This document shows positions 1,950 through 17,426 of a DNA stretch of 64,000 bases, piece after piece. The stretch is taken from contig CAZUNO010000004.1 in NCBI GenBank assembly GCA_964621445.1, positions 96,001-160,000 on the forward strand, in the 5' to 3' direction. The stretch's first letter is position 1. Every line of letters starts with the position of its first letter. Made by a program: the position numbers and the translations under genes. Source of the DNA: Candidatus Hadarchaeota archaeon (GTDB lineage: Archaea; CAYQAE01; CAYVLA01). Under the pieces are notes generated by a model. The model did no database searches, was not told where the DNA came from, and saw nothing but the letters and a program-made list of their open reading frames with translations.

Positions 1950-3770
1950 ATGATCATGGCCGACTTGCTGTCACTTAGCAGGGATCTGGCGGTATTCAGG
2001 GGAGAAGTAAACGTCGGTGTTGTTTTCAATGGGCCCTCAGTTCTATTGATCGATGTCGGACAGGGAGAGGTTTTAGAATCACTTGATCAGGATCATGAAG
2101 TTGACCTGGTGGCCTTCACCCACCATCATAGAGATCAGGCATGTGGTGCCTGGAAGGCCAAGCGTATTGGTTCGAGGATCCTTGTCCCCGAGGGAGAACG
2201 GTGGCTTTTCGAAGAGGTTTCTAGGTATTGGGGCGACTCCAGATACAGGTGGCACCTTTATGATCTCCATCCACACCACCTGACGCTGACCGAGCCGGTT
2301 AAGGTCGACAATTCTTTAAGGGATTGGGATGCTCTCGAATGGGGAAGAGCGAGGATCAAGGTATTATCAACCCCTGGACACACGGATGGAAGCTTGAGCT
2401 TCCTGGTTGAGGTAGATGGACAACGTACCGCATTCTGCGGGGATCTTATTTACGACGGCGGCAGGCTTTGGGATATCTACAGCATGCAGAAGGGATTACA
2501 TACCAGGGACTATCATGGATTTATGGGATCCAGGGAGGAGCTAACAAATAGCCTGTCAAGAATCGCTGAACGATCACCGGACAGAATCGTTCCCTCCCAT
2601 GGAGATATAATTAGAAATACCGATCGGGCCATAGATGTCCTAGTAAAACGTGTGGACCGGTGCTACCGGGATTTTGCCGCTATATCCTCTTTGCGCTACT
2701 ATTTTCCGGAGCTATTCGCGGATTACATGCGCGGGCCGAAGATAATGCCCATTTCCAAGGGAAAACGGGCTCCAGATTATTTGCTCCATCAGGGGACGAC
2801 ATGGGTATTGAAGTCCTCGGAAGGACCCTGCCTGGTCATGGATTGTGGTTCGCGGGATGTAGTGGACTGGCTTCTTCGTCTTCGTGGGGATGGGGACCTT
2901 GGTGAGGTCGAAGGGTTATGGATAACCCATTATCATGATGATCATGTGGATGGAATTCCCTATTTCAGGGAAAGCTTTGATTGCCCCATCATCGCAGATT
3001 CTCACGTTTCCAGGGTCATTGAGAGCCCCCTTAGTTGGCGGTTACCATGCATCTCGCCGGTGGAGGTGAATGTGGATCGTGTCACTGGAGAGGGTGAGAG
3101 CTGGGAATGGCACGAATTTAGCCTGTCAAGTTACCATCTTCCAGGCCAGACCCTCTATTCCGGTGGGCTTCTGGTTGAGGGGAAAGATATGAGGCTTCTT
3201 TTTTCCGGCGATTCATTCACACCTGGGGGCATAGATGATCATTGCTGCGGAAACCGAAACTTCCTTGGATACGATGTAGGATACCAGAGATGCATTGATC
3301 TCCTGGAATTCCTAAAACCCGATTTGATATTCAACAGTCACGTCGATGAGGGTTTTTCATTCAAGGCCGAAAACCTGGAATTCATGAGGACCAACCTGCA
3401 CAGGAGACTCAAGGATTTCGGTGCTCTTCTGCCATGGAGTAATCCGAATTTCGGGATGGACGAGAATTGGGTCCGTATGTACCCCTACGAACAGGTGATT
3501 AAGCCCGGCCAAAGGGCTGTTGTGTGTGCGGTGATTACCAACCATACGCGGGAGGATCTTGCAATTAAAGCTCGTATAATACCACCGAGATCATGGAAGG
3601 ATACACCGCCCGGTTGGAAGAGAGCAACCACCTCGCCGGGAGAAAATCGGATACCTCTATCCATAAAAATTCCGGAAAATATGGAGGGAAGAACCGCCTT
3701 TCCCGTGGACTTGAAGATGAACGATCTTGATCTTCCCCGTATTGCGGAATTTATCTTAGATACCCGCTAG
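1950..3770 (+). CDS. Tandem-domain metallo-beta-lactamase-fold hydrolase
   Basis: Two MBL motif sets: THHHRDQ...TPGHT...GD...PSHG and THYHDDH...PGQT...GDSF...NSH. C-terminal beta-rich extension. Confidence 0.85.
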   Translation: MIMADLLSLSRDLAVFRGEVNVGVVFNGPSVLLIDVGQGEVLESLDQDHEVDLVAFTHHHRDQACGAWKAKRIGSRILVPEGERWLFEEVSRYWGDSRYRWHLYDLHPHHLTLTEPVKVDNSLRDWDALEWGRARIKVLSTPGHTDGSLSFLVEVDGQRTAFCGDLIYDGGRLWDIYSMQKGLHTRDYHGFMGSREELTNSLSRIAERSPDRIVPSHGDIIRNTDRAIDVLVKRVDRCYRDFAAISSLRYYFPELFADYMRGPKIMPISKGKRAPDYLLHQGTTWVLKSSEGPCLVMDCGSRDVVDWLLRLRGDGDLGEVEGLWITHYHDDHVDGIPYFRESFDCPIIADSHVSRVIESPLSWRLPCISPVEVNVDRVTGEGESWEWHEFSLSSYHLPGQTLYSGGLLVEGKDMRLLFSGDSFTPGGIDDHCCGNRNFLGYDVGYQRCIDLLEFLKPDLIFNSHVDEGFSFKAENLEFMRTNLHRRLKDFGALLPWSNPNFGMDENWVRMYPYEQVIKPGQRAVVCAVITNHTREDLAIKARIIPPRSWKDTPPGWKRATTSPGENRIPLSIKIPENMEGRTAFPVDLKMNDLDLPRIAEFILDTR

Positions 3771-5521
3771 GACTCGGGCAAACGTCCCCTCGTGTAGCCC
3801 ACGATAAGAAGAGCGCACGAAAACACGACGGCGGAGATGAACATTATGGCCAGTAGAATATCCATCTTTATTGAGGCTTTGTGCTCGTTAAGCATCCTCT
3901 CCATATCACTTCTCAGTGCATCGTTTTCTCGTTCCGTCGTATACTCAATGAGACTAATCTCTTCCTGGGATTGTTCTTCAAGATTCCTTATCTCTTCATT
4001 CAAGGATTGAAGTTCCTCGATTCCTCTTTCAAGCTGGTTTATCATGCTAATGATTTGTCTGTCGTACTCCTGAAGTTCGGTGATATCTCGTTCCATCCTC
4101 TTTATGCGGGCAACACACTCCATAAGCTTGGATCGGATATCTGGCAGAGTTTCTGCCAAGTCCTTTATTTTCCATATGCTGGAATTGATTGCAGAAATTT
4201 CCCTTGAGATTTCGGAGAGATTGGAGCTTATGAATCCGGAGATATTCGCATATAGTTGGGCAAGTTGATGGCTCATGTTTGAGGTGATATTGCCCTCGAG
4301 CTGCCGAATCCTAGATGTAAGACCCATTTGAATTTGGACGAGCGAATTCGATAAATTCTCTATCCTCCCCTTTTCTTCCATGAGAGAACTGTTTAGATCC
4401 CCAATCCTCAGGTTTAATGACTGGTTCAGGCCCGACAAATATACCGTCAGGTTATTCAGGGTCCCGTTTAGAGTGTCAACTTTTTGGTTGGTTTGGGTCA
4501 GGTTGGAGATGATATTTCGAACCGAATTGTTCAATTCTCCTGCCGATTCCTCGGACTCCAGGCACAGTTCCCAGAGGGTCGTTGTTGTTGGTCGCCTGGC
4601 CAGATCAAGCATGACATTCAGGAAGCTATTTCTTATCCAGGCATCGGGAAGCGGAGAGAGGCTCAGCGGGTATGCCTCACCCTCCTCGTCGATGTCTATG
4701 GCGAACCATCCTATACAATCGCAATCACGTATTCTAGAGAATAATAGGTCGAATGTCATTTGATTGATGGTCGTTGTCTTGTCGATGATCTCCCCCTGCT
4801 CGCGGTGAGCCCTGAGGATAAACCAGGAATCGGAATCCAGCTTCCCCGTTAGGTTGATGGATAGCGCTACAGCCTCTGCAAGCCTTTCAATCTCCCCGGG
4901 ATCCAACTCCCTACCTGGTTCCACATAGGAGTAGTAATAGCTGACGATGAAATCGTATGGGGAGAGGAGGTTTGTGAGATTATCCAATTTCCTTGTGGAT
5001 CTATTTCCCACTACAATGCGCATATCAAGTATAACTCCCAGGCTCACATTCGGAAATTCCTCTTTCATGTCCCGCGCAATCTGGTTCTTGGCCTCCTTTC
5101 CACCCCGAGAGAGGTAGTCATCCCAAAGGATATACTCGGCTACCGGACCTTGATCGGTGCCTTCAAAGTATGAGATATTCCCCTTTATGCCGGAACTTAT
5201 CCTGTCAGAATTGAATTCATCGCTGATATTTGCAGTCAGAATCAGAGATATGTTCTTTCCGGACTTTGAGATATTAAGAAAGTAGTCCCGGGTAGAGGGC
5301 TGACAGGTTTCGTTTGTGGCATAGAAAACGATCCTGTCCAACTCTAGTTTCATGAGCTCTTGTGTGAGATTTTCGTTATTTGGCTCGAATGGGGCCACGA
5401 TGAAGCTCGCTGGTGCAATACGGGTATCTGAAGCCTGACAGGGGAATAAAATAAGAGCAAGTGCAATCATACCTCCCAATAGAAATTTGGGCCTAGAGAT
5501 CAAACCCTTTGGGATATTCAA
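3767..5521 (-). CDS. Membrane-anchored surface protein with a globular N-terminal domain and a long coiled-coil stalk
   Basis: Signal-peptide-like N terminus, many NxS/T sequons, heptad-rich region from about residue 320 to 550, C-terminal TM helix (ILLAIMFISAVVFSCALLIVGY) followed by basic residues. Confidence 0.75.
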   Translation of the reverse strand: MNIPKGLISRPKFLLGGMIALALILFPCQASDTRIAPASFIVAPFEPNNENLTQELMKLELDRIVFYATNETCQPSTRDYFLNISKSGKNISLILTANISDEFNSDRISSGIKGNISYFEGTDQGPVAEYILWDDYLSRGGKEAKNQIARDMKEEFPNVSLGVILDMRIVVGNRSTRKLDNLTNLLSPYDFIVSYYYSYVEPGRELDPGEIERLAEAVALSINLTGKLDSDSWFILRAHREQGEIIDKTTTINQMTFDLLFSRIRDCDCIGWFAIDIDEEGEAYPLSLSPLPDAWIRNSFLNVMLDLARRPTTTTLWELCLESEESAGELNNSVRNIISNLTQTNQKVDTLNGTLNNLTVYLSGLNQSLNLRIGDLNSSLMEEKGRIENLSNSLVQIQMGLTSRIRQLEGNITSNMSHQLAQLYANISGFISSNLSEISREISAINSSIWKIKDLAETLPDIRSKLMECVARIKRMERDITELQEYDRQIISMINQLERGIEELQSLNEEIRNLEEQSQEEISLIEYTTERENDALRSDMERMLNEHKASIKMDILLAIMFISAVVFSCALLIVGYTRGRLPES

Positions 5522-5558: not shown

Positions 5559-5640
5559 TATTTATAAGTCAAGCGTAGACCAATGAAGGCCAATTGTGGA
5601 GTTCCTTGTTCAGGGCTCCGCGAGGGTGTGAAATTTATAT
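5559..5640. promoter_or_regulatory. Divergent archaeal-type TATA boxes
   Basis: CTTATAAATA on the minus strand (5568-5559) upstream of 5521, and GAAATTTATAT on the plus strand (5630-5640) upstream of 5691. Confidence 0.45.
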
Positions 5641-5690: not shown

Positions 5691-7322
5691 ATGAACAAAT
5701 TTCTAGAATCCATCACTGGAAAAAGGTCCTTTCATCTCCTGCTCATCCTTTCCATATTTTATGTAATATCTAGCGGAAGTGTGCTTAGTACAAACGGGCC
5801 CTACCAGCCAATCCAACCAATCCAACCAATCCCCAATCTAACTTTTGATCCAATTCCTCCCGTTACCAATATCAGCCTTAGCGGTACTCAAGGTGAAAAT
5901 GGGTGGTTTACATCCGATGTGACCGTCACCCTGGAGGCAGCCGACAACCAGGGTACATGGAATAGCGGGCTCAAGGGAACCTTCTACTCAGTTATCCACG
6001 AGGACCAGCAATTTTCGCTTTCCTTGGAGTACACTGAACCCTTCACGGTTTCCCGGGAGGGGAAAAATACGGTCCGGTACCATTCGATAGATAACTATGA
6101 TAATTCGGAGGAAACCAATATCGAAGAGATTAGGATCGATAAGACCGAGCCACAGGGCTCCATGTCCATAAAGGGCCAGCCAGAGTATGTTTCGGAGCGG
6201 GATATACAGTTAAGCCTTTCGGGAACGGACGGGGTTTCTGGTTTGGCGACGGTGAGGTTAAAGACCGAGGGTGGTAGCTGGAGTGACTGGAGATCATATT
6301 CAAGCTCAATGAACTGGCAGCTAAGCTCAGGTGACGGAGAAAAGACGATAATGGCCCAGTTAAAGGACAGGGCCGGACAAACCTCGGAAACCTACCAGGA
6401 CCAGGTTATCCTGGACACATCTGCCCCGTCAATTTCCCTGGGTAACGAGAATGGATCGGTGGTTAAGAGCAATTCGGTTACCATCAACTGGAGCGCCACC
6501 GACGAGGGTTCAGGGATAGATAGTTACCAGGTCAGGGTCGATGGTGGGTCCTGGAAAAATGCGGGTACGGATTCCTCCTACACCTTTGAGAATCTCGAGG
6601 GTGGGGAACACGTCTTTGAGATCAAGGTAGCTGATGAGCTGGGGCAAACCGAAGTTAAGGCCCTTGAAATGGTGGTAAATACCACCCCAATTGGTGGACC
6701 ATCAATGCTCGAGGAGCTTCTTATCGTGGTGTTAATAATTGCCGTTGCCATAGGAGGGGTACTATACTGGTTGAGCAAGAGGCCCGAGAAACCGCCCGAG
6801 CCAGCCCAGCTGAGGGTTACCGCGGACCCAGATGAGATAATTGCCGATGGAAAATCCACATCCACCATAACCGTGCAACTGCTTGACGAGAAGGGTGAAC
6901 CGGTGGAGGCCAATGCGGATACCGAGGCAAAACTAAAGGCTAGCTCCGGGAGCATCGTCAATCCCGTGGTGAAGATTGCCCAGGGAAGCGATTCCGGAAC
7001 CGCGGTTCTTGGTTCATCCACCAAGTTCGGGAGCGTGAACGTGACCGTCGAGAGTTCCGGGCTGGCTTCCAGTTCCGTTTCGGTTACCTTCAAGGAGAAG
7101 CCTAGATTCTGCATGGGATGTGGCAGCCGAATGTCCGTGGGCGAGAAGAGGTGCGAAAACTGCGGTGCATCTCCATCAAAATTCGCAGGGCCCGAAACCA
7201 AGACCTGTCACTGCGGGGCCGTACTGCCCTACACGGCGAACTACTGCAGTGAGTGCGGCGCCAAACAGTCCCGAGCCGGGGAGTTTTCGGGCGAGGGGCC
7301 CGAGCCCGAATCACAGGAGTGA
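5691..7322 (+). CDS. Single-pass membrane protein: Ig-like ectodomains, TM helix, Big_1/invasin-like Ig domain, double zinc ribbon
   Basis: Signal or TM N terminus; Ig-like repeats (PPVT...GENGWFTSDVTVTL, IDKTEP, LDTSAP); TM LLIVVLIIAVAIGGVLYWL-SKR; ADGKSTSTITVQLLDEKGEPV (Big_1-type motif); CMGC, CENC, CHC and CSEC knuckles. Confidence 0.8.
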   Translation: MNKFLESITGKRSFHLLLILSIFYVISSGSVLSTNGPYQPIQPIQPIPNLTFDPIPPVTNISLSGTQGENGWFTSDVTVTLEAADNQGTWNSGLKGTFYSVIHEDQQFSLSLEYTEPFTVSREGKNTVRYHSIDNYDNSEETNIEEIRIDKTEPQGSMSIKGQPEYVSERDIQLSLSGTDGVSGLATVRLKTEGGSWSDWRSYSSSMNWQLSSGDGEKTIMAQLKDRAGQTSETYQDQVILDTSAPSISLGNENGSVVKSNSVTINWSATDEGSGIDSYQVRVDGGSWKNAGTDSSYTFENLEGGEHVFEIKVADELGQTEVKALEMVVNTTPIGGPSMLEELLIVVLIIAVAIGGVLYWLSKRPEKPPEPAQLRVTADPDEIIADGKSTSTITVQLLDEKGEPVEANADTEAKLKASSGSIVNPVVKIAQGSDSGTAVLGSSTKFGSVNVTVESSGLASSSVSVTFKEKPRFCMGCGSRMSVGEKRCENCGASPSKFAGPETKTCHCGAVLPYTANYCSECGAKQSRAGEFSGEGPEPESQE

Positions 7323-7327
7323 TATGG

Positions 7328-7723
7328 GTGGGACTTCCGGCTGCAAAGCTTAACGACAAGATAACGGCCATGGACATCCATGTGATAATGGTGCCCTCCC
7401 CCGGGGGTCCGGTGCCCACGCCCACCCCTAGCCCCTTCACCGGAAATATAGTATCCGATGTATCATCCGACGTACTAATTGAGGGCCTTCCGGCAGCCAC
7501 CCTTGGCAGCCGGGCCATCAACATGCCTCCCCATATCCCGGTCGGGGGCCCTTTCATGAAACCTCCCATGAACGAGGGAAAGGTGATGATGGGCAGCACA
7601 AGCGTCCTCATAAATTCAAAGCCGGCAGCACGGCTGGGGGACACCGCCATGACCTGCAATGACCCGGTTGACCTGCCCATAGGACAGGTCATCTCCACAA
7701 CCACCACGGTTTTGATCGGATAG
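7328..7723 (+). CDS. PAAR-domain spike-tip protein
   Basis: Motifs LPAAKLND, LPAATLGS and KPAARLGD...CND. Likely start is GTG 7328 after GGAGTGA; the ORF-track start at 7253 overlaps the upstream gene. Confidence 0.93.
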   Translation: MGLPAAKLNDKITAMDIHVIMVPSPGGPVPTPTPSPFTGNIVSDVSSDVLIEGLPAATLGSRAINMPPHIPVGGPFMKPPMNEGKVMMGSTSVLINSKPAARLGDTAMTCNDPVDLPIGQVISTTTTVLIG

Positions 7724-7769
7724 TCCTTAGTTTGATCGTAAAGACCGCGATTGAGTTTGAGAGAGCCGT

Positions 7770-8312
7770 ATGAAGACACACAAAACGGCCGTGGTAATAA
7801 TTCCTCCAGGTGAGGTACTGGAGCCAATACAGGAAATAAGGAAGGTGCACGACAGGCAGTTCAGGCGCTGGATGCCCCATATCACGCTGATCTATCCCTT
7901 TAGGCCCCGGAAATACTTCCCGATAATAGCCCGTGAGATGAGGCCCGCAGCCTCCAATGCAAGCCCTTTCGAGGTGGGCCTTAAGGAGCTGTCATTCTTC
8001 GAGCACTCGTCCGGCAGGTGCACCCTGTGGCTCGTCCCTGAACCAGGGGCTAAACTGGGTGAACTCAGGGAGTCCCTGGTCCAGGTGGTTCCAGATTGCG
8101 ATGATGTTGCTAGATTCAGAAATGGATTTACCCCGCATCTAAGTGTTGGGCAGGCGGAGGGGAAAAGAGAAGCCGTTGAGCTTATTGAGGAGCTTGAAAA
8201 AGGCTGGGAGCCCCGCTCCTTCAAGGTAACCGAAGCCAGCTTCATATCGAGAGGAGACCCTCCCAATGACATATTCCAAAAAAACCTGTCGATAGAGCTT
8301 GGTCAAGAATAG
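7770..8312 (+). CDS. 2H phosphoesterase (2'-5' RNA ligase family)
   Basis: Two Hx(T/S) motifs: WMPHITL and FTPHLSVGQ. Confidence 0.88.
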   Translation: MKTHKTAVVIIPPGEVLEPIQEIRKVHDRQFRRWMPHITLIYPFRPRKYFPIIAREMRPAASNASPFEVGLKELSFFEHSSGRCTLWLVPEPGAKLGELRESLVQVVPDCDDVARFRNGFTPHLSVGQAEGKREAVELIEELEKGWEPRSFKVTEASFISRGDPPNDIFQKNLSIELGQE

Positions 8313-9008
8313 CTAGACAAGGGGTCCCTGGCTTCGGACCTCTACCTTTTCTATTAGGCCTACCTCTTTCTGTATCTGTATTTCTCTCTCCAGATCACAC
8401 TCAATCTCTAGCACTGTGGCCTGCATAGGTTCATCTAGTCTCAATTTCCCTTTTCCAGGCTTGATCTCCATGCCCTTTTTGGAGAATTCCTCTTCCGCCA
8501 TCAAAAGGGCCTCCATTACCTTATGGCCCAGGGCATCCGCCTTATCCCTCTCCTTTTGCCATACCTGAATCGAGTACCTGGCCTGCAGTTTGGCTTTTTT
8601 TAGGGTAACGATTCCCCTTTTTGGCTGGTAGCTGACCTTGATATTCTCCTTTCCTTTCTTGGGGGCTCTCTCAAATTGGACCTGTACCTGGTCATAATCC
8701 ATGTGGTAGTCCTCGCCCTCGCGGAGAATCTTTCCCTGCGGATGCTCAACGCGAAGGCTACCTCTCATCATGGATTCCTGAAGCTCAAAGTTCTTTTTGC
8801 TACCCGTCCCGTTCAGCAATTCCACTGCACGTGGAGTCTGGGATTCCAGATCCTCGGATATTGTAGGTTTGCCCATCTCAAAACCGAGATTCCTGATGGA
8901 GATGGCAGGGAGGCTTTCTGGGTCCTCCCCGAAAATTATCCTTTTATCCTCCACTCCCACCTCGGTTTGAAGGAGCTCCCCTATGCTCTCCTCGATCTCT
9001 CTAAGCAT
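8313..9008 (-). CDS. Probable tail terminator/cap protein (Pvc16/DUF4255-like) with an inserted beta module
   Basis: Last gene of the tail operon. N terminus (LREIEESIGELL...IIFGEDPESLPAISI) and the YSIQVW...DALGHKVMEAL segment resemble the Pvc16/gp15 cap pattern. Confidence 0.55.
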   Translation of the reverse strand: MLREIEESIGELLQTEVGVEDKRIIFGEDPESLPAISIRNLGFEMGKPTISEDLESQTPRAVELLNGTGSKKNFELQESMMRGSLRVEHPQGKILREGEDYHMDYDQVQVQFERAPKKGKENIKVSYQPKRGIVTLKKAKLQARYSIQVWQKERDKADALGHKVMEALLMAEEEFSKKGMEIKPGKGKLRLDEPMQATVLEIECDLEREIQIQKEVGLIEKVEVRSQGPLV

Positions 9009-9014
9009 ATGCCT

Positions 9015-9677
9015 TCACTCTGTTAGCTTTTTGGAGGGAATGATCCTGGCCCTTCCGTGAAGCAGGTTGCCTATCCTAGGCGTGCATTCCTCGTCAAGGT
9101 TGGTGAAGGTAATGGTTAGTATTTCCTTTTTGGGATTTGGATTATGGAGTCGATATCTGTACCATACATATTCGTTTGAGGAAAGGAGATATTCGACGTA
9201 GGGGTTGTCCTCTCCCTTTGGCCTTAACCTGGATCTATCGTGGACGAACATCTCGCTAAACACGTACTGGGTACCGTCGGTATAGTCCAGGGCTATGTCC
9301 AGTGTTTTTCTATCCCCGTTCTCCGCTCCTGCCCAGTAGTCAATGGAATCAAGCTTGGAGACTATCCCGAATCTGCAGATATCTCCCACCTGACCGGGAT
9401 CCAGTAGCCACTGCTTGGTAATCAAGCCCACTATCTGGGTCTCATAGCTTGAGGACTCGCCGGGAATGACCTCGTTAAGCTCGTGGGGATTTCCTATCTG
9501 GCTGGTTACATTGAGAAGGGTGGTTGTCTCCTGCATATTATCTATGTAGTCTCGGAGAATCTCGATCTTCTTTTCAAGAGAATCGAGATCGGACTTTATC
9601 TTGTTCTGCATTTCGTTCCAGTCTTCAGACTTGATTACCTCTCCAGGGTTTCTGGCTATTGGTTCAAATTCTACCAT
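9015..9677 (-). CDS. CIS accessory protein, candidate short fibre or receptor-binding protein
   Basis: N-terminal PGEVIKSEDWN motif, short coiled coil, then a beta-rich domain ending YRLHNPNPKKEILTITF. Start ATG 9677 chosen from GGAGG spacing. Confidence 0.5.
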   Translation of the reverse strand: MVEFEPIARNPGEVIKSEDWNEMQNKIKSDLDSLEKKIEILRDYIDNMQETTTLLNVTSQIGNPHELNEVIPGESSSYETQIVGLITKQWLLDPGQVGDICRFGIVSKLDSIDYWAGAENGDRKTLDIALDYTDGTQYVFSEMFVHDRSRLRPKGEDNPYVEYLLSSNEYVWYRYRLHNPNPKKEILTITFTNLDEECTPRIGNLLHGRARIIPSKKLTE

Positions 9678-9678
9678 T

Positions 9679-10596
9679 TCAATCATCCTCCGATACGGCA
9701 ACGATCCCGGTCGTCCCCGCGGCCTTCATTGAGTTAACTACCTTCTGAAGGTACTCTTGGGAGACATCGCTAGATTCCAGCGTATCATGATCTATAATGA
9801 CCTTAAAGGTTGAGGGTTGGAGCCTTTTCCATTCGAATTCTATCTCAACCGGGGGTATACCAACGGCGAAAGTCTGTTCATCGAACTTTGCCTCATCAAA
9901 TACTCCCACCATTTTTCCCAGGGATTCGCTGTACTTCCATTTTGATATCCATCTGGTGAGCGTAGGTATTTCTCCCGGGGATTTTTCATCGGGCAGCTTC
10001 TCCCCGTCTAGAGTGGCAGCTCCTTTTTCCAGTATTAGTGTTTGATTACTCCCTAACTTACCATCATAGGTGACCGACTCGCCGGTATCGATGTTGGTTA
10101 TCTCTGGCTGGCTGACCTCGCCACCCTCCTTGACGGTTATGGTTATTCGAGGCTTAGCATCCTCTATGCTCTGGCTGCTGATCTGCCAGGTATCGCTGGC
10201 CCTTACCGTCAGCTTCTGGCGTCCCGGCGCCGGAGGATTCTCCACAACCTTGACCGAGCCCTGCCCCTCGTCCCTTATGAGCTTGGTAACCGAGTCCAAG
10301 ATTGCCGATACCGTTCCACCCCCCTTGTACTCGTCAACGGCTCTATGGATACGAGTTCGGAAATTGGCATCATCTTCATCGTCAAATCTTTCCATGCCCA
10401 GGAGGCTTGCCAGATTGTCCAGGTTTTCCCCATCAGCAACGTCGACCCATTTTGTCTTCATGACGTCCATGAGCTTATCTTCCGCCAGATCGAGTTCGGT
10501 GCTGATCCCATGTATGAGGACACTAATCAGGGAATCTTCGTCCCAACTTCTATAAAAACGAGGAAGCCTCCGCCTAATTCTTTCGACCCGGTCCAT
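9679..10596 (-). CDS. Baseplate wedge protein (P2 gpI / T4 gp7-like)
   Basis: LPRFY...LDNLASLLGMERFDDEDDANFRTRI...GGGTVSAI N terminus, VVNSMKAAG C terminus, directly downstream of baseplate J. Confidence 0.8.
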   Translation of the reverse strand: MDRVERIRRRLPRFYRSWDEDSLISVLIHGISTELDLAEDKLMDVMKTKWVDVADGENLDNLASLLGMERFDDEDDANFRTRIHRAVDEYKGGGTVSAILDSVTKLIRDEGQGSVKVVENPPAPGRQKLTVRASDTWQISSQSIEDAKPRITITVKEGGEVSQPEITNIDTGESVTYDGKLGSNQTLILEKGAATLDGEKLPDEKSPGEIPTLTRWISKWKYSESLGKMVGVFDEAKFDEQTFAVGIPPVEIEFEWKRLQPSTFKVIIDHDTLESSDVSQEYLQKVVNSMKAAGTTGIVAVSEDD

Positions 10597-10600
10597 CCAA

Positions 10601-12169
10601 TCACTTCAATTCGAAATCTATATCCATATTTCTTGGTTCCGCACGTTCCCGGCTAGATATGGTTATGTTCTCCTTTTCACTCTGCACTATCTCTCCTTCC
10701 TTGTGCGCCGTGAGTTTGACCTCCCTGACATCGATAACCTGGTTTACTTTAAGCGCGGAGTCGATAACCCGGGAATATAGCACATCCTCCCCTATTCCCA
10801 GGAAGGATATGTAGCTTCTCACCGCCATCTCGGCCTCGGTAAGCACACCGGGAGCATCGGCGGATTTTTTCAAAGTGAGAATGAAGCTAACATCGATGTA
10901 GGCCCTCTTCGGCCTGGAAAACTCGACCTTGATGCCCGCGGCCCGCGTTTCGTCTATTACCGCCTGAATCTCTTCTCCATCGCCCCCATCAGCGATAACG
11001 GCGACTATTCCCGGAACATCCTCGGGCATGTCCTCCACAAGAAGGGATCTAACTCCCTCGACCGCCCCCACTGCCGATTCAAGAGAGGACACGGTTGCTC
11101 TACCCGCGAATTCGAGGGCATGCCTTGCCCTTTCACGGAGCTCCTCATCGGTCTCCGTGCCCACGCCATTGGTGATGTCGCCCTTGTTTATCACATACTC
11201 AATTCCGGGGACCGGCTGAGGCATAACGGTGATGGTGCCGGCGAGCACGTTACCACGGGTTCCCGGTTGGTCACAGACCACGGGAACATCGGCTTCCCAT
11301 CTTCCCTCCTCCGTGGGCGAGAGCTCACCCTCTTCGGTGGTGGTGAATGTACGGGCTTCCTCGGGGGTGGAGGAGAATGTGGATACGCTTGCACCTTTGG
11401 GCACGATTATCTGATTATAGCTTGTATAGTCAACGCGAAAAACGGTTCGGGGGTCGGGCTTGGTCCCTTCGGCCACCCACCTGATCCTATTTTCCACCAC
11501 AATGTAGTCGACCTCGGGTTGGAAGGTATGCTCCTCACCCTCTACGGTCCCCTCCACACTGGATACCTCCTCGACCAGAGGCTTCTTGAGCTCGTATTCA
11601 TCAGAACCATCGAAGAGGTGAACCTCTTCTGAATTTGCTACCGTTTCTGGCTCGGAAGCTCTGCCGAAAGTTACCTGTCCCGAGGAAGGCTTTGGGGGTT
11701 TCCTGGTTATTCCGAGAAGGGAGACAACCATATCCAGGGCCTCTCCCTCCGCGGTCTCCAAAAAACCGGACTCATGAACCTCCTCCATCTGAGAGTAAAG
11801 GAAATCGATCTCCCGGCTTATGGCCTCCACTATGGTCCTAACCACGCTACCTGGGCTCACGTCCGAGATCCCGGCCGGCCTTGAGAACCAGTAGCTAACC
11901 TCGAATTCGGTGCCCTGGTCGGGGTGCCTTCCATCTGGTAACCACTCCACCTGGTTGGCTATTAATCTGAAATCCTCTTCTATATTGAACTGGACACCGG
12001 TCCCGTTGTGGATACCAGTGATCTTTGAGATCTTCTCCACAGGTTTGCTGGACAATTGATAGGAATTTAACCCCTGCCTGTATTCGATTTCCTCCACATT
12101 TTCCCCGCCAGTTATCTGGGTCAAGATGTCCTTTGAAACCTTTCTGTAGTCCTTCCGTATCGCCTTCAC
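10601..12169 (-). CDS. Baseplate J/gp47 (gp6-like) wedge protein
   Basis: PGSVVRTIVEA...ETAEGEALD...LGITRK, PGTRGNV, GTETDEELRERA, RAAGI. Confidence 0.93.
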   Translation of the reverse strand: MKAIRKDYRKVSKDILTQITGGENVEEIEYRQGLNSYQLSSKPVEKISKITGIHNGTGVQFNIEEDFRLIANQVEWLPDGRHPDQGTEFEVSYWFSRPAGISDVSPGSVVRTIVEAISREIDFLYSQMEEVHESGFLETAEGEALDMVVSLLGITRKPPKPSSGQVTFGRASEPETVANSEEVHLFDGSDEYELKKPLVEEVSSVEGTVEGEEHTFQPEVDYIVVENRIRWVAEGTKPDPRTVFRVDYTSYNQIIVPKGASVSTFSSTPEEARTFTTTEEGELSPTEEGRWEADVPVVCDQPGTRGNVLAGTITVMPQPVPGIEYVINKGDITNGVGTETDEELRERARHALEFAGRATVSSLESAVGAVEGVRSLLVEDMPEDVPGIVAVIADGGDGEEIQAVIDETRAAGIKVEFSRPKRAYIDVSFILTLKKSADAPGVLTEAEMAVRSYISFLGIGEDVLYSRVIDSALKVNQVIDVREVKLTAHKEGEIVQSEKENITISSRERAEPRNMDIDFELK

Positions 12170-12576
12170 TCCTCTCCCTCCAAATCGAATGGGTAGGTAA
12201 TGCTAAGCGTTCTTCCTTCCCCCTCGGGGACCACGGATATGGCTATATACAATAGGTTGGGGTCATGATTATCGGATCTAACCCTAATCTCGGTTACTTC
12301 CCTTATCCTTGGCTCCTGGGAGAGTGCAAACCTTATCGTGTTACGTATTCTATTCCTGGTCATCTCGTTATTCGGCTCCCCTATTATGTCATACAGGCGG
12401 GACCCGTAATCCGCATGACCCACATCCTCCAATTCACCCTCCTCGGTGGTTAGGCGATGAATAATTGCCTGGGCAAGATTGTCTTCCCCGGAGATAACAT
12501 CCAGGTCCCCTTTGCCGGGAACTAGATCAGCACCCACCCGGTCGAATTCGAGTCTGAGATCTGTTTTCATGGACAT
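12166..12576 (-). CDS. GPW/gp25 family baseplate (sheath-initiator) protein
   Basis: SGEDNLAQAIIHRLTTEEGEL...HADYGSRL...ALSQEPRI. Confidence 0.92.
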   Translation of the reverse strand: MSMKTDLRLEFDRVGADLVPGKGDLDVISGEDNLAQAIIHRLTTEEGELEDVGHADYGSRLYDIIGEPNNEMTRNRIRNTIRFALSQEPRIREVTEIRVRSDNHDPNLLYIAISVVPEGEGRTLSITYPFDLEGEE

Positions 12577-12586
12577 ATCAAAACCT

Positions 12587-13399
12587 CTAGTTTATGGTCA
12601 CCAGTGACCCCTTGATCTTGGTAACTGCACTCGAGGAAAGCTCCGAGAATGCATCGGATTTTAGTAGAAGCTGTAGCGCCTGGACCTTTGCCTTCCCCTG
12701 GGTGGTGGCATTTAGCGCCGTCTGGGCCTCCATGCCAATCTCGGCCGACTTGATATCGGCACTCTTCTTTGATTCAAGTTTTAGATCGGTGCCACAATCG
12801 AGCCCCATCGCCTTCTGGCTTTCAATCTTTACGTCAGATCCCGATATGCTCATATTGCCACTGGATTTAAGTGAGGCATCTCCATCCGCCGCTATCGAAA
12901 CGTTTCCCTTTGACTTTATCTCGACGTCCCCATCCTTCTTCACCCTGATTTTAGTTTCCCCGGAGGTAAGATTCGCCTCCTCGTCGCTTATGGCGAGCGT
13001 GGTTCCGCTTGGAAACTCCAAATATATCCTTCTAACATCCGAGTTCTCCTCCTGGGGGGAAACGTAAACCACTTCCTCTGCCTCGCTTGCCGGCGGCCTA
13101 TCCTCATCATTATACAGCCTACCGACCACTATTGGATAGTTTATATCTCCGTTAGCAAATACCACCAGCACCAGATCACCCACGTTGGGAGGTCCCACAA
13201 AACCTATTACCTGGGTAGCTATCTGGGCCCTTCTGATTTCCAGATCTGGATTCTTGAGCCTAACGTCGCATTCGTAGTTGTCCTTGTCGCTTTCATCCTG
13301 GTGAGGGTAGATGGAGGTTACGACGCCCAGCTGGGGCATCCAGAAATTGCTGAGTTCCTCCTGTGTTATCCCTCTTACCGCTTCGACTATATCCATCAT
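12587..13399 (-). CDS. Central spike (gp5 / gpV / VgrG C-terminal half)
   Basis: OB-fold motif PNVGDLVLVVFANGDINYPIVVGRLYN, followed by beta-helix repeats ending KIKGSLVTIN. Confidence 0.92.
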   Translation of the reverse strand: MMDIVEAVRGITQEELSNFWMPQLGVVTSIYPHQDESDKDNYECDVRLKNPDLEIRRAQIATQVIGFVGPPNVGDLVLVVFANGDINYPIVVGRLYNDEDRPPASEAEEVVYVSPQEENSDVRRIYLEFPSGTTLAISDEEANLTSGETKIRVKKDGDVEIKSKGNVSIAADGDASLKSSGNMSISGSDVKIESQKAMGLDCGTDLKLESKKSADIKSAEIGMEAQTALNATTQGKAKVQALQLLLKSDAFSELSSSAVTKIKGSLVTIN

Positions 13400-14379
13400 G
13401 GTAGTTCGGCTCCTTTCTTCCTTCCAGTTACGGTGGTGGTGAAGCCCTTTGTCTTGCTTAGGTAGTGCTCCACTCCGGTGACCTGTATCTCTCCATTTAG
13501 TGACGAATTTGGCGTGCCATTGACATCAACCACGTCTCCGAGTTTGATCTCCGCGCGTCCCACCAGGTCCAGGGTAACCTTCATTTTGTATTTCATTTTC
13601 TCCGCTCTCGCCTTAGCGACGCTTTGGGCGGTTTTAGTATCCTTTATGGTGGGGTCATTTATGATGAGGGGATTTCCGCCGCCGCCTCCGGATATCTTTG
13701 CTAAAACGTTCTGTTTCGTCAACCAGGTTATGGTGTGCGAACCCTTAGAGCTTGAAGGGCTTTCCCCCCGAATCTCGGTGGACCCATACCTTGGGGATGT
13801 ATCGAGACAAGAGGCGCTCATGATATCCTTTCCGTATTCCACCGTATGTCGATCCTCGGTAACCCAGGATCGAAATATTAGCTGGCCCTGCTCGTTTGAA
13901 TAGATATCGAAATTACATTTCTTGGCCAGCTTCAGGATGTGCTTAAAGGCATTTATCTTATCATCGAGGGAATATATCGGTAGATTAATTCCATCGGAGG
14001 CCTCCTTGACCTCTATCTCGGCCTCCTTGGCCAGATCCTTCACTATCTTACCCGCAGTTTGATTCGAGTATACCTTCTTGGTCTTGAGTTTCAGAAGTGC
14101 CGAGAAGGGACCCAGTCCGGTCAGGGTTAGGTTTCTGATATCGTACTCGACCTTGTCCAACGCACCGGCAAACACCTTCTCCAGTTTATCCTCATAACCA
14201 AGGCTGGCCTCCACCATCTCCTTTCCCTCGACCTCTAGGGCATCTGGAGATGACATCTTTATCTCGCAGCTATCAATGGGCAATCCCATGCTTCTCTTAA
14301 CCCGAAGGCTCACCAGCTTCCTTTCCTTGGCCGAAATCGAGTCCGATCCTACGGTGATGGAGAAAGCCGGTTTCATCAT
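13396..14379 (-). CDS. Baseplate hub (gp27/gpD, VgrG N-terminal-like)
   Basis: LGY...VFAG, TAGKIVKDLA, ILKLAKKCNFDIY, IKLGDVV...VTGVEHYLSKTKGFTT; lies upstream of the spike gene. Confidence 0.88.
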   Translation of the reverse strand: MMKPAFSITVGSDSISAKERKLVSLRVKRSMGLPIDSCEIKMSSPDALEVEGKEMVEASLGYEDKLEKVFAGALDKVEYDIRNLTLTGLGPFSALLKLKTKKVYSNQTAGKIVKDLAKEAEIEVKEASDGINLPIYSLDDKINAFKHILKLAKKCNFDIYSNEQGQLIFRSWVTEDRHTVEYGKDIMSASCLDTSPRYGSTEIRGESPSSSKGSHTITWLTKQNVLAKISGGGGGNPLIINDPTIKDTKTAQSVAKARAEKMKYKMKVTLDLVGRAEIKLGDVVDVNGTPNSSLNGEIQVTGVEHYLSKTKGFTTTVTGRKKGAELP

Positions 14380-14880
14380 CTACACCATCGACCCCCTAGA
14401 TGAATTGATCTCCTTTACCTTACTCCTTACCTCCTCCTTCGCCGATTGCTTCTGTTCCGGGGGCGGCGTTTCACCTGGGCCCTTCTCAGGTTCATGCTCC
14501 CTCAGTACCATGGAGTATTCGCTGCCCGAGGGTTCGGTGTTTTTTAGGGTAGCCGAGAATTTTTCCATAACTACCTCAGTTACCTCCGTCAGAGGGCTTA
14601 TATCGCAGGAAAATGATAACACCTTGCCCTTGGAGAAAAGATCCCTGAGCTGATCAAGGGTCTCGGGAGTGTCCGGGCCAACCAACCGACCGTCGAAGGA
14701 GATCTTTACCGGGTCCCGCCCCAGGTCCTGAAATACATTTGAATCGGAACCCGGGATCTTGAGCTCAACCACCGATCGCTCTCCGCTTATTGATAGATTA
14801 GCTATATTTCTAAGCTCCCGGATCACCCCATCCTCATCATTTCGCATAATGAGATCTATGTCCTCTACCCTCATCTGCAT
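14380..14880 (-). CDS. Tail tube initiator-like protein (gpU / Mu gpN N-terminal-like)
   Basis: VVELKIPG...FQDLGRDPVKISFDG...YSMVLRE pattern; position between tape-measure candidate and hub. Confidence 0.7.
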   Translation of the reverse strand: MQMRVEDIDLIMRNDEDGVIRELRNIANLSISGERSVVELKIPGSDSNVFQDLGRDPVKISFDGRLVGPDTPETLDQLRDLFSKGKVLSFSCDISPLTEVTEVVMEKFSATLKNTEPSGSEYSMVLREHEPEKGPGETPPPEQKQSAKEEVRSKVKEINSSRGSMV

Positions 14881-14882
14881 AG

Positions 14883-16412
14883 CTATATCTCCTCAAAGCT
14901 GATGTGACCGTAGTGACGGCGCACCTGTTCGGTCATTATCCTGGATATCTTTCTCTCCAGGTCCCTCAGATCCTCTTCCTGAACTTCGCCTGAAACGACC
15001 AGGTTCACATCCCTCTCACGGGTCGGTCTGACCGGTCGCAATACGGGACGAGAAGGTTGTTCTTCCTCTCTCTGAACGGTGGCCTGAGCGGCCGTTGATG
15101 GAGAGGTGGAGACCGGGGGCATTGTGGCCGTCACCGGGGGCCCGGAAACTGCAATATTTGCTAGGGGCCTAAGGTATTCCCTCTGGGTGACCTCGATGTT
15201 CTGGGCCATTTTGGTAAAATGATGTTCTATCTCACTGGCCAGGGCCGTTTCCAGGGAGAGTAATCCAGGTCCTGCCTCCCGCGGCCGAGATACGGGTGAG
15301 GGCCGGGTTTCGGCAGGGGCCCGGAAATCCACGGGAATAACTGGCAGTTGTGTTTCTTGCCCCTCCGATCCAATCTCCTTCAGACTGGATAATTCTCGGC
15401 CTATTTGCCCTTGAAGTCTGGCCATGGCCATGCTTGGCGCCAAAATCTCGGGAACAATGGCCCTGGTTTTATCCTCCTCAGTCTCAGTTCCGGATATATA
15501 CCTTCTTTCTTCCGAGGATGGTTGCTTTGCCGATACATTTCTAGTATCCTCAGGGGGGATTTCGCCCCCCGTTATGCTTATGGGCGAGCCCAGGTCTCCC
15601 TGTAGGCCTGAACCCAGCCTGGTCAGGGGCATCACAAGTTGAGAGGCGGCCACGGTCAGTGGTGAAACCGGGGTCTTCTCGGTGCCTAGCTGTGGCTTTT
15701 TCATTTCTACTTCTTTACCATCGGATTGTTTCCTTTCCGCGGTTTCCCCGTCTGACGCAGGTGTGCCAGGAAAGGCCGGGATTCCGGCCATAACTGTGCT
15801 TGAAATTGCGCCTGCAAGAAGAGCGGCATTGCCTATCTGACGGCCCGCTCGCTCTGCAACGGACAGGGGCTCATTTATGCCCTCCTCCAATTCCATTATG
15901 CTGGATGATACCCGTCTTGTGGCCTGGGATGGTCGTGACTGAGAAACTAGACCTGCCAGTCCCTGCGATCCGGTGATATCTCCGACCTGGAAATCTTTGG
16001 AAGGGGTCTCCTGGACAGCCCCTGGAACGAGGTGTACCATTTGCTGGGCCATGGCTGAGGCTATCTTTCTGGCTACCGAGACCCGGAATAGTAGGGAAAC
16101 GTTTACCCCTCCCATCCTTCCCGTTTGGGTCTTGACATCTTGCTCCATTTGGTCCTGTCGAGACCAGATATCAAGGGGTGGAAGAGGTGCGAAACCAGTC
16201 ATAGACAGCTCCGTCATCCTGTTACCTACGGTTGCCAGACGGGTTATGGCGCCAGTCAAGGTCCTGAAAACCGATGTCAGAAGTCTTTCCATGGATGCCG
16301 CGTACCTGGATGTATCAACACCCATCTCCCATAACCGGTTAACGTAGCGCTGGGTATAGGCAGCTATTCTAATGGGTTTAGAGATGGCTCGATAGGTTTT
16401 TCGTTCATCCAA
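14883..16412 (-). CDS. Putative tape-measure-like protein
   Basis: Canonical position after the chaperone pair. Low-complexity A/S/P/T/E sequence with a helical C terminus (LERKISRIMTEQVRRHYG). Start is TTG 16412 after GGAGG; the track gives 16439. Confidence 0.5.
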   Translation of the reverse strand: MDERKTYRAISKPIRIAAYTQRYVNRLWEMGVDTSRYAASMERLLTSVFRTLTGAITRLATVGNRMTELSMTGFAPLPPLDIWSRQDQMEQDVKTQTGRMGGVNVSLLFRVSVARKIASAMAQQMVHLVPGAVQETPSKDFQVGDITGSQGLAGLVSQSRPSQATRRVSSSIMELEEGINEPLSVAERAGRQIGNAALLAGAISSTVMAGIPAFPGTPASDGETAERKQSDGKEVEMKKPQLGTEKTPVSPLTVAASQLVMPLTRLGSGLQGDLGSPISITGGEIPPEDTRNVSAKQPSSEERRYISGTETEEDKTRAIVPEILAPSMAMARLQGQIGRELSSLKEIGSEGQETQLPVIPVDFRAPAETRPSPVSRPREAGPGLLSLETALASEIEHHFTKMAQNIEVTQREYLRPLANIAVSGPPVTATMPPVSTSPSTAAQATVQREEEQPSRPVLRPVRPTRERDVNLVVSGEVQEEDLRDLERKISRIMTEQVRRHYGHISFEEI

Positions 16413-16641
16413 GGTTTTCCTCCACCTCTTCCTCTTCATCCTCGGAAACCACTATTCTGGTCACTCCTTCAGCCGCCTTTTGGGCCGTTCTCTTCATCTC
16501 ATTTCTGTATGACATAGCGCCGGTGAGGAAGAGAACCTGGTCTCTGGTAAGGTTGGCGGGATTATCGGCCAGTTTGTATCCGCAGTCCAGACATAGGGCT
16601 GCAAGCTCTACGCCCTCGGGACTTTTAACGAACCGTTTCAT
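16405..16641 (-). CDS. Small tail-assembly-chaperone partner (lambda gpT / P2 E'-like, -1 frame ORF)
   Basis: 78-aa ORF in the -1 frame relative to the upstream chaperone, with an ATGA overlap; open back to the A9 run. Confidence 0.65.
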   Translation of the reverse strand: MKRFVKSPEGVELAALCLDCGYKLADNPANLTRDQVLFLTGAMSYRNEMKRTAQKAAEGVTRIVVSEDEEEEVEENLG

Positions 16642-17003
16642 TCGGATTTTTTTTTACGAGCTGCCGATTCGGTCACGCCGCTTAGTTCAAGGACCTTCAT
16701 TCCAATAAACTCCGGTACCCCGAATTTCATTGCGGCAACCTCTCCCTCAGAGAGCTCCGGGTCAACCAGGCCCTTTGAAGCCGCCATTCTGAGTGCTTCA
16801 AGGTTTTTGTGGACGTCAACATTGCCTAAATCCGGGGTTCCATCGTCCTTCAATGGAACGTTTCCAATCAAACCAAATATCTCAGAAAGCTCTCCATCGG
16901 TTAATGGACGTATAGAGACCTCTGCGTTATCGTACTCCTTGATGGTGAGAGTTTTCTTCATTTTTGCGCCCTGTAGAATGGCCTGCTTCGTGAGCCTTGT
17001 CAC
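16638..17003 (-). CDS. Tail assembly chaperone (gpG/gpE-like)
   Basis: Follows the tube gene. GTG 17003 after GGAGG; LTKQAILQG...VSIRPLTDGE...GLVDPELS pattern; ends RKKKSE*. Confidence 0.75.
   Translation of the reverse strand: MTRLTKQAILQGAKMKKTLTIKEYDNAEVSIRPLTDGELSEIFGLIGNVPLKDDGTPDLGNVDVHKNLEALRMAASKGLVDPELSEGEVAAMKFGVPEFIGMKVLELSGVTESAARKKKSE
16647..16655 (-). other. Candidate -1 programmed ribosomal frameshift site (A AAA AAA)
   Basis: T9 on the + strand reads CGT AAA AAA AAA TCC GAA TGA on the minus strand. The -1 frame continues ATC CGA ATG AAA CGG into the 78-aa ORF. Confidence 0.65.
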
Positions 17004-17008
17004 TTCTA

Positions 17009-17410
17009 CTACTCCTCCCTCATCCTGGTGGCGGTGAATGTGTAGTCGGTGGTGCCCACGCCGTTGGCATCCATTGAGAACACCTTTCCCTCCAGATAGC
17101 ACCTATCGAAGGCCAAGGTCCTCACGGATTGACCTCCCTTCTTGAGTTCTATTACCAGCTGGAATGGCTGGATGTCAGCCACGCCGGTAACCATCATGCT
17201 ATCAAACTTTGGAAAGCTGGAACGCACCTTAAGCGTGCCCTCCACGTACATGGGTCCGTAGTCTATTCCCACCCTTTCGTCAAGGCCTATGTTGTGGACA
17301 TTCTGGCGGTTTCGGACCACCTTGTACTCTATTGCCTGAAGCCCTGGTATGACCTCGCCGTCGACCTTTATGTTACTAACATTTGCGGAAACAACAACTG
17401 GTTCTGGCAT
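17009..17410 (-). CDS. Tail tube protein
   Basis: 133 aa, directly after the sheath; beta-rich tube pattern IKVDGEVIPGLQAIEY...NIG...YVEGTL...DYTFTA. Confidence 0.85.
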   Translation of the reverse strand: MPEPVVVSANVSNIKVDGEVIPGLQAIEYKVVRNRQNVHNIGLDERVGIDYGPMYVEGTLKVRSSFPKFDSMMVTGVADIQPFQLVIELKKGGQSVRTLAFDRCYLEGKVFSMDANGVGTTDYTFTATRMREE

Positions 17411-17426
17411 CTATAATCACCTCCTC

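Follow-up and report, generated by a model that had tools for sequence, protein, structure and literature searches.

Why does the PAAR spike-tip gene of an archaeal contractile injection system lie behind the gene of a membrane protein, away from the spike gene of the tail operon? This question is raised by a stretch of 64,000 nucleotides (nt) from a Candidatus Hadarchaeota archaeon (assembly GCA_964621445.1, contig CAZUNO010000004.1, positions 96,001 to 160,000 of the forward strand), hereafter the window; its genome is labeled G000. A phage-tail-like operon occupies positions 8313–18782 on the minus strand, and three genes on the plus strand converge on the operon end. They encode a membrane protein of 543 amino acids (aa), which we call MEM, the PAAR protein and a LigT-like protein. 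The part of MEM made up of its transmembrane (TM) helix, an immunoglobulin-like (Ig) domain and a double zinc ribbon is termed the inner tail. We propose, with about an even chance of being right, that MEM is a membrane adaptor of the archaeal injection system, like CisA of Streptomyces but unrelated to it in build. The proposal is based on architecture, topology signals, synteny, co-occurrence and gene coupling, from which we infer binding, anchoring, the direction of firing and a trigger role.

The first-pass annotation of this locus had described PAAR as separated from the spike gene, encoded on the strand opposite the tail operon and placed 5 nt behind the stop codon of a 543-aa gene. All three statements agree with the coordinates of the following features.

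5691–7322, plus strand: MEM, 543 aa, predicted type-I bitopic protein (Pfam, NCBIfam, hydropathy, AlphaFold2)
5727–5792, plus strand: MEM signal/anchor, aa 13–34 (hydropathy)
5844–6689, plus strand: MEM predicted ectodomain, three beta-sandwich domains, aa ~52–333 (AlphaFold2, Pfam, NCBIfam)
6702–6770, plus strand: MEM TM helix, aa 338–360 (AlphaFold2; hydropathy segment aa 332–364)
6801–7094, plus strand: MEM Invasin_D3/Big_1 Ig domain, aa 371–468, predicted cytoplasmic (Pfam)
7110–7259, plus strand: MEM double zinc ribbon (DZR), aa 474–523 (Pfam below cut-off, Cys pattern)
7328–7723, plus strand: PAAR spike-tip protein, 131 aa (PF05488, 47.5 bits against a cut-off of 27)

The spike gene (12587–13399, minus strand) is followed after 10 nt by gp25 with no PAAR gene between them, and the PAAR gene is found at 7328–7723. 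The MEM stop codon TGA occupies positions 7320–7322, GGAG is present at 7315–7318, and the PAAR start codon GTG begins at 7328. This start was set by an alignment of homologues; a longer open reading frame (ORF) from GTG 7253 is unused in the homologues. No other PAAR match was found in the 3.2-Mb, 96%-complete genome. The NCBIfam model T6SS_PAAR_dom scored 31.1 bits, far under its cut-off of 124, and thus the window PAAR is not the equivalog of the proteobacterial type VI secretion system (T6SS).

MEM contains two hydrophobic segments by hydropathy, at aa 13–34 and aa 332–364. Its AlphaFold2 model, computed from seven orthologues, had a mean predicted local distance difference test score of 77.9 and comprised three confident beta-sandwich domains, a helix at aa 338–360, a fourth beta domain at aa 373–469 and a zinc-ribbon region of lower confidence. 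Within the ectodomain, Big_7 was matched at aa 253–300 and an fn3-like match was also seen, while the OmpL47-type beta-barrel domain NF047446 of NCBIfam was matched in two stretches before the second helix (76.3 bits against a cut-off of 40). The basic linker SKRPEKPPEP comes directly after the TM helix. The Ig domain that follows matched Invasin_D3 of Pfam with 49.8 bits against a cut-off of 33; Big_1 reached 28.8 bits, under its cut-off of 34.9. The same domain matches residues 108–198 of invasin (1cwv_A) with an E value of 2.8e-8. The DZR family (PF12773) scored 24.5 bits, just under the cut-off of 27.3, which many relatives exceed, and eight Cys residues in the pattern CxxC...CxxC...CxC...CxxC are invariant in the seven orthologues. 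Hence the order first read from the sequence, with Ig domains before the TM helix and SKR, a Big_1-like Ig domain and a double zinc ribbon after it, was recovered by Pfam, NCBIfam and hydropathy. The DZR is the most constrained region of the protein, with a mean pairwise identity of 0.85 and 42 of 58 columns invariant, compared with an identity of 0.52 in the ectodomain. A Foldseek search with the MEM model returned only generic tandem Ig/FN3 adhesins and S-layer proteins, and the ESM Atlas yielded no usable match for aa 335–543.

The two sides of the helix differ in composition. In 7/7 orthologues, four to six N-X-S/T sequons precede the helix and zero to two follow it, and Cys residues number zero before the helix and eight to nine after it. 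The 15 residues after the helix carry a net charge of +4 to +6 in 6/7 orthologues. The split in sequons and Cys residues and the positive charge after the helix fit a type-I orientation, with the Ig domain and the zinc ribbon inside. This predicted orientation, which would place both domains in the cytoplasm, is well supported, and the inner location that had been proposed for the Ig and zinc-binding part was thereby strengthened.

Next, we considered whether MEM is tied to the injection system in other genomes. Scans of metagenomes and genomes yielded 10 distinct loci with a MEM orthologue (46–67% identity), one of which ends 260 nt after the gene. In all nine loci with visible downstream context (9/9), PAAR, LigT and tail genes or a replacement cassette are found downstream of the orthologue. 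In type A loci (the window, G003, L019, L020 and L026), MEM and PAAR, with or without LigT, face the tail operon. In type B loci (G001, L023, L027 and L022), MEM faces a cassette of ~6 kb on the opposite strand, which is followed by LigT and the tail operon. The type B cassettes with coordinates are listed here.

L023, 11527–17843, minus strand: type B cassette
L017, 1715–7869, minus strand: type B cassette
L027, 314–6472, minus strand: type B cassette

Each cassette encodes a DcrB-like protein, a 601-aa protein of the metallophosphatase family, two or three proteins without a family (465, 237/343 and 292 aa) and an extended PAAR of 360–413 aa, whose C-terminal extension measures 230–280 aa. 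It looks like a tip-effector-immunity module. The relatives carry the labels of archaeal metagenome-assembled genomes. The same gene arrangement is seen in relatives whose proteins are about 50% identical, and is thus more than a chance finding.

The far flank of MEM varies: it holds the coiled-coil gene up584 in the window, a URO-D-like gene in G003, and SnoaL and L-PSP genes in L023. Upstream of MEM in the window there is an MBL gene, which lies on other contigs in G001 and G003 and is also present in G002, where MEM and the sheath were not found. MEM therefore travels with the tail block and not with the chromosomal flank. As for up584 itself (3767–5521, minus strand), this divergent neighbor of MEM encodes 584 aa with an N-terminal signal-like segment, a long coiled coil, a C-terminal TM anchor and many N-X-S/T sites, which give it the look of a surface protein; beyond the window, only the closest relatives, L019 and L020, retain it (31–36% identity).

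The phylum is represented by five species genomes (G000–G004); as these are kin, they provide one pattern and not five independent trials. The MEM inner-tail module, the sheath, LigT and g228, an operon gene that marks this injector lineage, were each found in G000, G001 and G003, and none of them in G002 (91% complete) or G004 (98% complete). Among 401 archaeal genomes, the full inner-tail module and g228 occurred together in the same three. In G000, the tail locus, PAAR and a protein with the full inner-tail module each occur once. The only other match to the inner-tail profile in this genome is an 838-aa ORF (C57, 4275–6788, minus strand), which has three Big_1-like repeats and no zinc ribbon.

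The sequence upstream of MEM contains one further conserved feature.

5628–5640, plus strand: TATA/BRE-like box GTGAAATTTATAT, conserved, 50 nt ahead of the MEM start codon

A box of the form GTGA[A/G]ATTTATAT was found 45–60 nt upstream of the MEM orthologue in 6/6 loci inspected (the window, L017, L018, L021, L022 and L023), which include two near-identical pairs, L017/L021 and L022/L023. It has a single exact match in the window and was not found ahead of the sheath operon, which has a TATA-like stretch of its own. From its resemblance to the archaeal consensus, we take the box to be a putative promoter element of the B recognition element (BRE)/TATA type. Scans for sigma-70 promoters and terminators remained at chance level; such models do not apply to archaea. 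The MEM stop codon and the PAAR start codon are 5 nt apart in the window and in L019/L020 and 4 nt apart in G003, and they overlap as GTGA in L026, so that a spacing of ≤5 nt or a 4-nt overlap is kept in 4/4 distinct type A lineages. A promoter would not fit into so short a gap ahead of PAAR, and the sequence of type A loci therefore favors a single MEM-PAAR(-LigT) transcript.

More distant injector lineages were sought with g228. A scan of IMG/VR with this protein gave four loci, two of which end before the relevant region. The other two, L047 and L066, show the region after the final operon gene, g231, and both carry there a convergent gene with a MEM-like zinc ribbon. L047 is an archaeal contig, with pilin-like genes downstream, and its injector proteins are 33–67% identical to those of the window (Baseplate_J 47%, g228 52%). 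The convergent gene directly after its g231 homologue has a 318-aa product, in which a signal peptide and a single small ectodomain come before the TM helix, and KRRPKK and a MEM-like stretch ending in the same Cys pattern come after it. The stretch is 38% identical to MEM 278–526, and Pfam names Invasin_D3 and DZR on a 316-aa relative, P0205. In L066, an AT-rich locus whose baseplate genes precede those of the sheath and tube, the gene right after the g231 homologue (7273–7875, minus strand) encodes a 200-aa soluble protein. All that this protein has in common with MEM is the double zinc ribbon (38% identity, hhalign probability 96%). A scan of IMG/VR with the inner-tail alignment returned only the L047 contig, already found. 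The claim that the membrane protein belongs to the tail-like locus therefore stood: it draws on synteny in 9/9 loci, co-occurrence in 3 of 5 genomes and a zinc ribbon at the same spot in two distant lineages.

The place of PAAR proved less constant than that of MEM. In L047, PAAR holds its usual place in the order spike, PAAR, gp25, yet the zinc-ribbon gene is still at the operon end; thus the coupling of MEM and PAAR is lineage-specific. The PAAR family comprises 982 homologues of ~130 aa, and among the 120 matches listed the identity was 63–73%, many of them with bacterial labels. In 6/6 IMG/VR loci with this PAAR family, L047 among them, PAAR comes directly after the spike, and gp25 is next in four of the six. 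These loci came from an alignment-based scan; a scan of IMG/VR with the single PAAR sequence found none. In L065, L066 and L067, PAAR was not found on the contig and the gap between spike and gp25 measures 42–140 nt, so that a PAAR gene outside the core operon is common in the injector lineage. The type B proteins group as a single derived pair within the orthologue clade in the tree of inner tails; consequently, a plain PAAR beside MEM is probably the older state of this clade.

It had also been suggested that separate transcription of PAAR could arm the particle. This idea was not supported, as the coupling is confined to one sub-lineage and is missing in type B loci and in L047. A move into an exchangeable cassette slot better accounts for the position of PAAR. 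The auxiliary modules of T6SSs, made up of VgrG/PAAR and effector genes, likewise have their tip gene in an exchangeable cassette apart from the core operon. The type B cassette is similar to them in holding an extended PAAR together with enzyme-like and DcrB-like genes; it differs from them in that the core operon of the window is P2-like and no TssJLM or ClpV was found among the scanned ORFs.

The converging operon and the gene that meets its end consist of the following features.

17427–18782, minus strand: sheath (Pfam)
17009–17410, minus strand: tube, assigned by synteny with relatives
16638–17102, minus strand: chaperone-like g154 (weak match to a PHROG tail assembly chaperone)
14883–16439, minus strand: 518-aa low-complexity protein in the tape-measure position, a role inferred from position only
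14380–14880, minus strand: DUF6046/baseplate-hub-like protein (Pfam, NCBIfam, PHROG)
13396–14379, minus strand: gpD-like hub (Pfam, NCBIfam, PHROG)
12587–13399, minus strand: spike, Phage_base_V, related to gpV/VgrG (Pfam, NCBIfam, PHROG)
12166–12576, minus strand: gp25 (Pfam, PHROG)
10601–12169, minus strand: Baseplate_J (Pfam, PHROG)
9679–10596, minus strand: P2_I-like wedge protein (Pfam, PHROG)
9015–9701 (probable start 9677), minus strand: g228, marker of the injector lineage in a tail-fibre-like position, conserved across lineages
8313–9008, minus strand: g231, final operon gene, syntenic in L018, L019, L023, L047, L066 and L067
7770–8312, plus strand: LigT-like 2H phosphoesterase, 180 aa (PF13563, 119.6 bits)

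Sheath, tube, hub, spike, gp25, Baseplate_J and P2_I-like genes are thus present in one operon, without capsid or terminase genes, as in a contractile injection system. The order of the core operon, from sheath, tube and chaperone-like protein through the 518-aa protein, hub-like, gpD-like hub, spike, gp25, Baseplate_J and P2_I-like proteins to g228 and g231, is that of a P2-like phage tail. The flanking ORFs that were scanned encode transporters and enzymes. Genes for a cap or terminator and for an ATPase were not identified at the locus, and the scanned locus ORFs included neither a TssJLM membrane complex nor ClpV. A TssM/TssL analogue by homology was also considered for MEM and rejected, as no such Pfam matches were found among the scanned ORFs.

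The g228 protein is 52–80% identical across lineages and has 408 homologues, of which 120 were compared; two of the matches listed are labeled Bathyarchaeia or Bathyarchaeota. Its AlphaFold2 model, of low confidence (58.3), shows an N-terminal helix followed by a beta domain, and no sequence relatives were found in the PDB. Searches of Pfam, NCBIfam and PHROG gave no match for g231. The LigT-like gene is kept between the PAAR slot and the operon end in both type A and type B loci, and in the window its stop codon directly abuts that of g231. It could be an accessory or effector gene and not a housekeeping one. As listed, the tube and chaperone-like ORFs (16638–17410, minus strand) share 94 nt; the second probably starts further in, its homologues aligning from residue ~36. 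A 506-aa protein without a family match is encoded divergently from the sheath (18968–20488, plus strand). Its first 82 residues are also encoded beside the sheath in G003 (47% identity), and the genome holds four weaker paralogues.

If MEM is the adaptor of this particle, it would cross the membrane once, with three OmpL47-type/Ig domains facing the envelope and its conserved tail facing the cytoplasm. Through its inner tail, MEM would bind the assembled particle at the baseplate or spike end. It would hold the particle at the inner face of the membrane, from where the particle would fire outward in the manner of a T6SS. The outer domains might report contact, and a sensing or trigger role of the ectodomain is possible. 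In this lineage, the tip gene would have moved out of the core operon to a slot of variable content, flanked by the adaptor gene and the end of the operon. The slot would hold either a plain PAAR translationally coupled to the adaptor gene, as in type A, or an opposite-strand cassette with an extended PAAR, as in type B.

Several observations weigh against this adaptor role. The inner tail is not peculiar to these loci. A word-based search for it found only 16 proteins. A profile search of 1.84 billion representatives gave 3876 matches, 372 of them at E ≤ 1e-30. The best 150 of the 3876 included giant multi-Big_1 adhesins and ~85 proteins of 184–1395 aa with the whole inner tail at the C-terminus. 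In 63/63 scanned proteins with the whole tail, Invasin_D3 was near the C-terminus, and nearly all had DZR; their ectodomains (PKD, propellers, Kelch, CarboxypepD_reg and others) all differ from that of MEM. In a tree of 83 inner tails, the seven orthologues form one clade (support 100/99), and L047 and P0205 fall in a distant one. L024, whose protein is P0010-like and belongs to the group next to the orthologue clade, has urocanase, prefoldin, DHH and ECF transporter genes downstream and no tail gene within 6.4 kb on that side, its upstream side being cut. When ~50 inner-tail contigs outside the orthologue clade were compared by size with those of the g228 homologues listed, one size matched (62918 nt), and inner-tail contigs of 166, 90 and 41 kb had no counterpart among the 120 of 408 g228 matches listed; such a rough match by size is no proof of adjacency, nor is its lack a proof of absence. 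In addition, the strong synteny all comes from kin, namely one family and related metagenome contigs, and may partly reflect descent. Finally, since the L066 protein lacks a TM helix, the zinc ribbon, and not membrane anchoring, may be the common element. The first-pass annotation had tied its proposal to the membrane protein keeping to loci of contractile injection systems. This held for the orthologues, none of which was found away from such loci, and did not hold for the wider inner-tail family, with L024 as an example.

The spread of the inner tail behind unrelated ectodomains, the lack of tail genes downstream in L024, the long contigs unmatched among the g228 matches listed and the restriction of tight synteny to kin all favor an alternative in which MEM is an ordinary surface protein of a wide archaeal family. 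Its TM-Ig-zinc-ribbon tail would then be generic, serving anchoring, sorting or another partner; the gene would have been inherited beside the locus, and PAAR would have landed there by rearrangement. We consider this somewhat unlikely. MEM is absent together with the tail locus in G002 and G004, though the MBL gene persists in G002, and the far flank varies while the block from MEM to the tail is constant. Moreover, L047 and L066, with injector proteins just 25–58% identical to those of the window, carry a zinc ribbon at the same spot, and the tight spacing of MEM and PAAR is kept in 4/4 distinct type A lineages.

MEM could also act with the injector from outside, its ectodomain being an adhesin at the firing site or a factor of kin recognition or self-protection, and its inner tail a generic anchor. 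An OmpL47-type/Ig ectodomain is of the kind found in adhesins and S-layer proteins, it is exchanged from lineage to lineage, with three domains in the window family and a single small one in L047, and the effector/immunity look of the type B cassette suggests antagonism. However, the best conserved part is the cytoplasmic zinc ribbon and not the ectodomain, and L066 keeps only a soluble zinc-ribbon protein, which leaves this explanation improbable in our judgment. The 5-nt spacing and the shared promoter region of type A loci would suit a MEM that is a chaperone or loading factor of PAAR, or is itself delivered; but the signal/anchor and the TM helix make a cargo unlikely, and MEM persists both in type B loci, with PAAR on the opposite strand, and in L047, with PAAR in the core operon, so we give this idea a very slim chance. 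A broader version of the adaptor role, which we regard as a quite doubtful extension, is that the inner tail is a portable docking module for intracellular injectors. The hundreds of archaeal surface proteins that bear it behind swapped ectodomains would be alternative sensors that recruit or trigger the same particle, and targets would be recognized in the envelope and not by tail fibres. Hints in this direction are the injector link in two distant inner-tail clades, the bare zinc ribbon kept in L066 and P0180 of a third clade, which shares the contig size of 62918 nt with P0389. P0180 (1153 aa, seven CarboxypepD_reg domains) and the g228 homologue P0389 each have this length for their longest contig, and their sources are the same; the two may share a contig, which would be a further link between inner tail and injector.

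Membrane partners of contractile injection systems have been described in three other settings. CisA (SCO4242), from the cytoplasmic system of Streptomyces coelicolor, is bitopic, encoded after the baseplate genes and, as genetics showed, needed for firing, with its N-terminus in the cytoplasm and its C-terminal domain outside; it serves regulated cell death in a bacterium (PMC12237407). Like MEM, CisA spans the membrane once, is conserved with the locus and has its gene at the baseplate end, the usual place of tail-fibre genes; it is not part of the purified particle, and a baseplate protein is the predicted contact of its cytoplasmic part (PMC12237407). The predicted orientation of MEM is the reverse, so that MEM does not have the topology of the CisA type. 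The inner part of CisA is largely unstructured and its outer domain resembles substrate-binding proteins (PMC12237407), whereas in MEM a folded Ig domain and a zinc ribbon would lie inside, with OmpL47-type domains on the outer side; MEM is set apart from the CisA family by architecture and orientation, not by sequence comparison.

In the haloarchaeal T6SS, Hbor_38620 is a putative membrane anchor, whose cytoplasmic domain was proposed to hold the baseplate (PMC11566945). It is, like MEM, archaeal, located in the membrane and conserved beside the gene cluster of a contractile injection system. It differs in having six predicted TM helices and a cytoplasmic domain of ~150 residues, compared with one TM helix and a signal/anchor in MEM, and in being encoded upstream of the core cluster of a different lineage of injection systems (PMC11566945). 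In the thylakoid system of Anabaena, anchored through Cis13/Cis12, the TM helix is part of the tail-fibre-like Cis13 itself (PMC8894136). Here, g228 and g231 have no TM-like segment by hydropathy, and the candidate is a separate membrane protein. Our literature search found nothing that joins contractile injection with a zinc ribbon, and the literature on double zinc ribbons, TM proteins and archaea was unrelated, as judged from titles and abstract openings.

For the haloarchaeal T6SS, whose contact with the envelope the study could not resolve, no more than a putative anchor is known (PMC11566945). MEM would be a second candidate adaptor for archaeal injectors, unrelated to the haloarchaeal one, and its inner module, which is predicted to be folded and is highly conserved, should be expressible for binding tests. 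The tip protein in an exchangeable cassette, as in the auxiliary modules of bacterial T6SSs, forms a pattern that points to antagonistic use. The injector lineage itself is little known, and its marker g228 has 408 homologues in public data.

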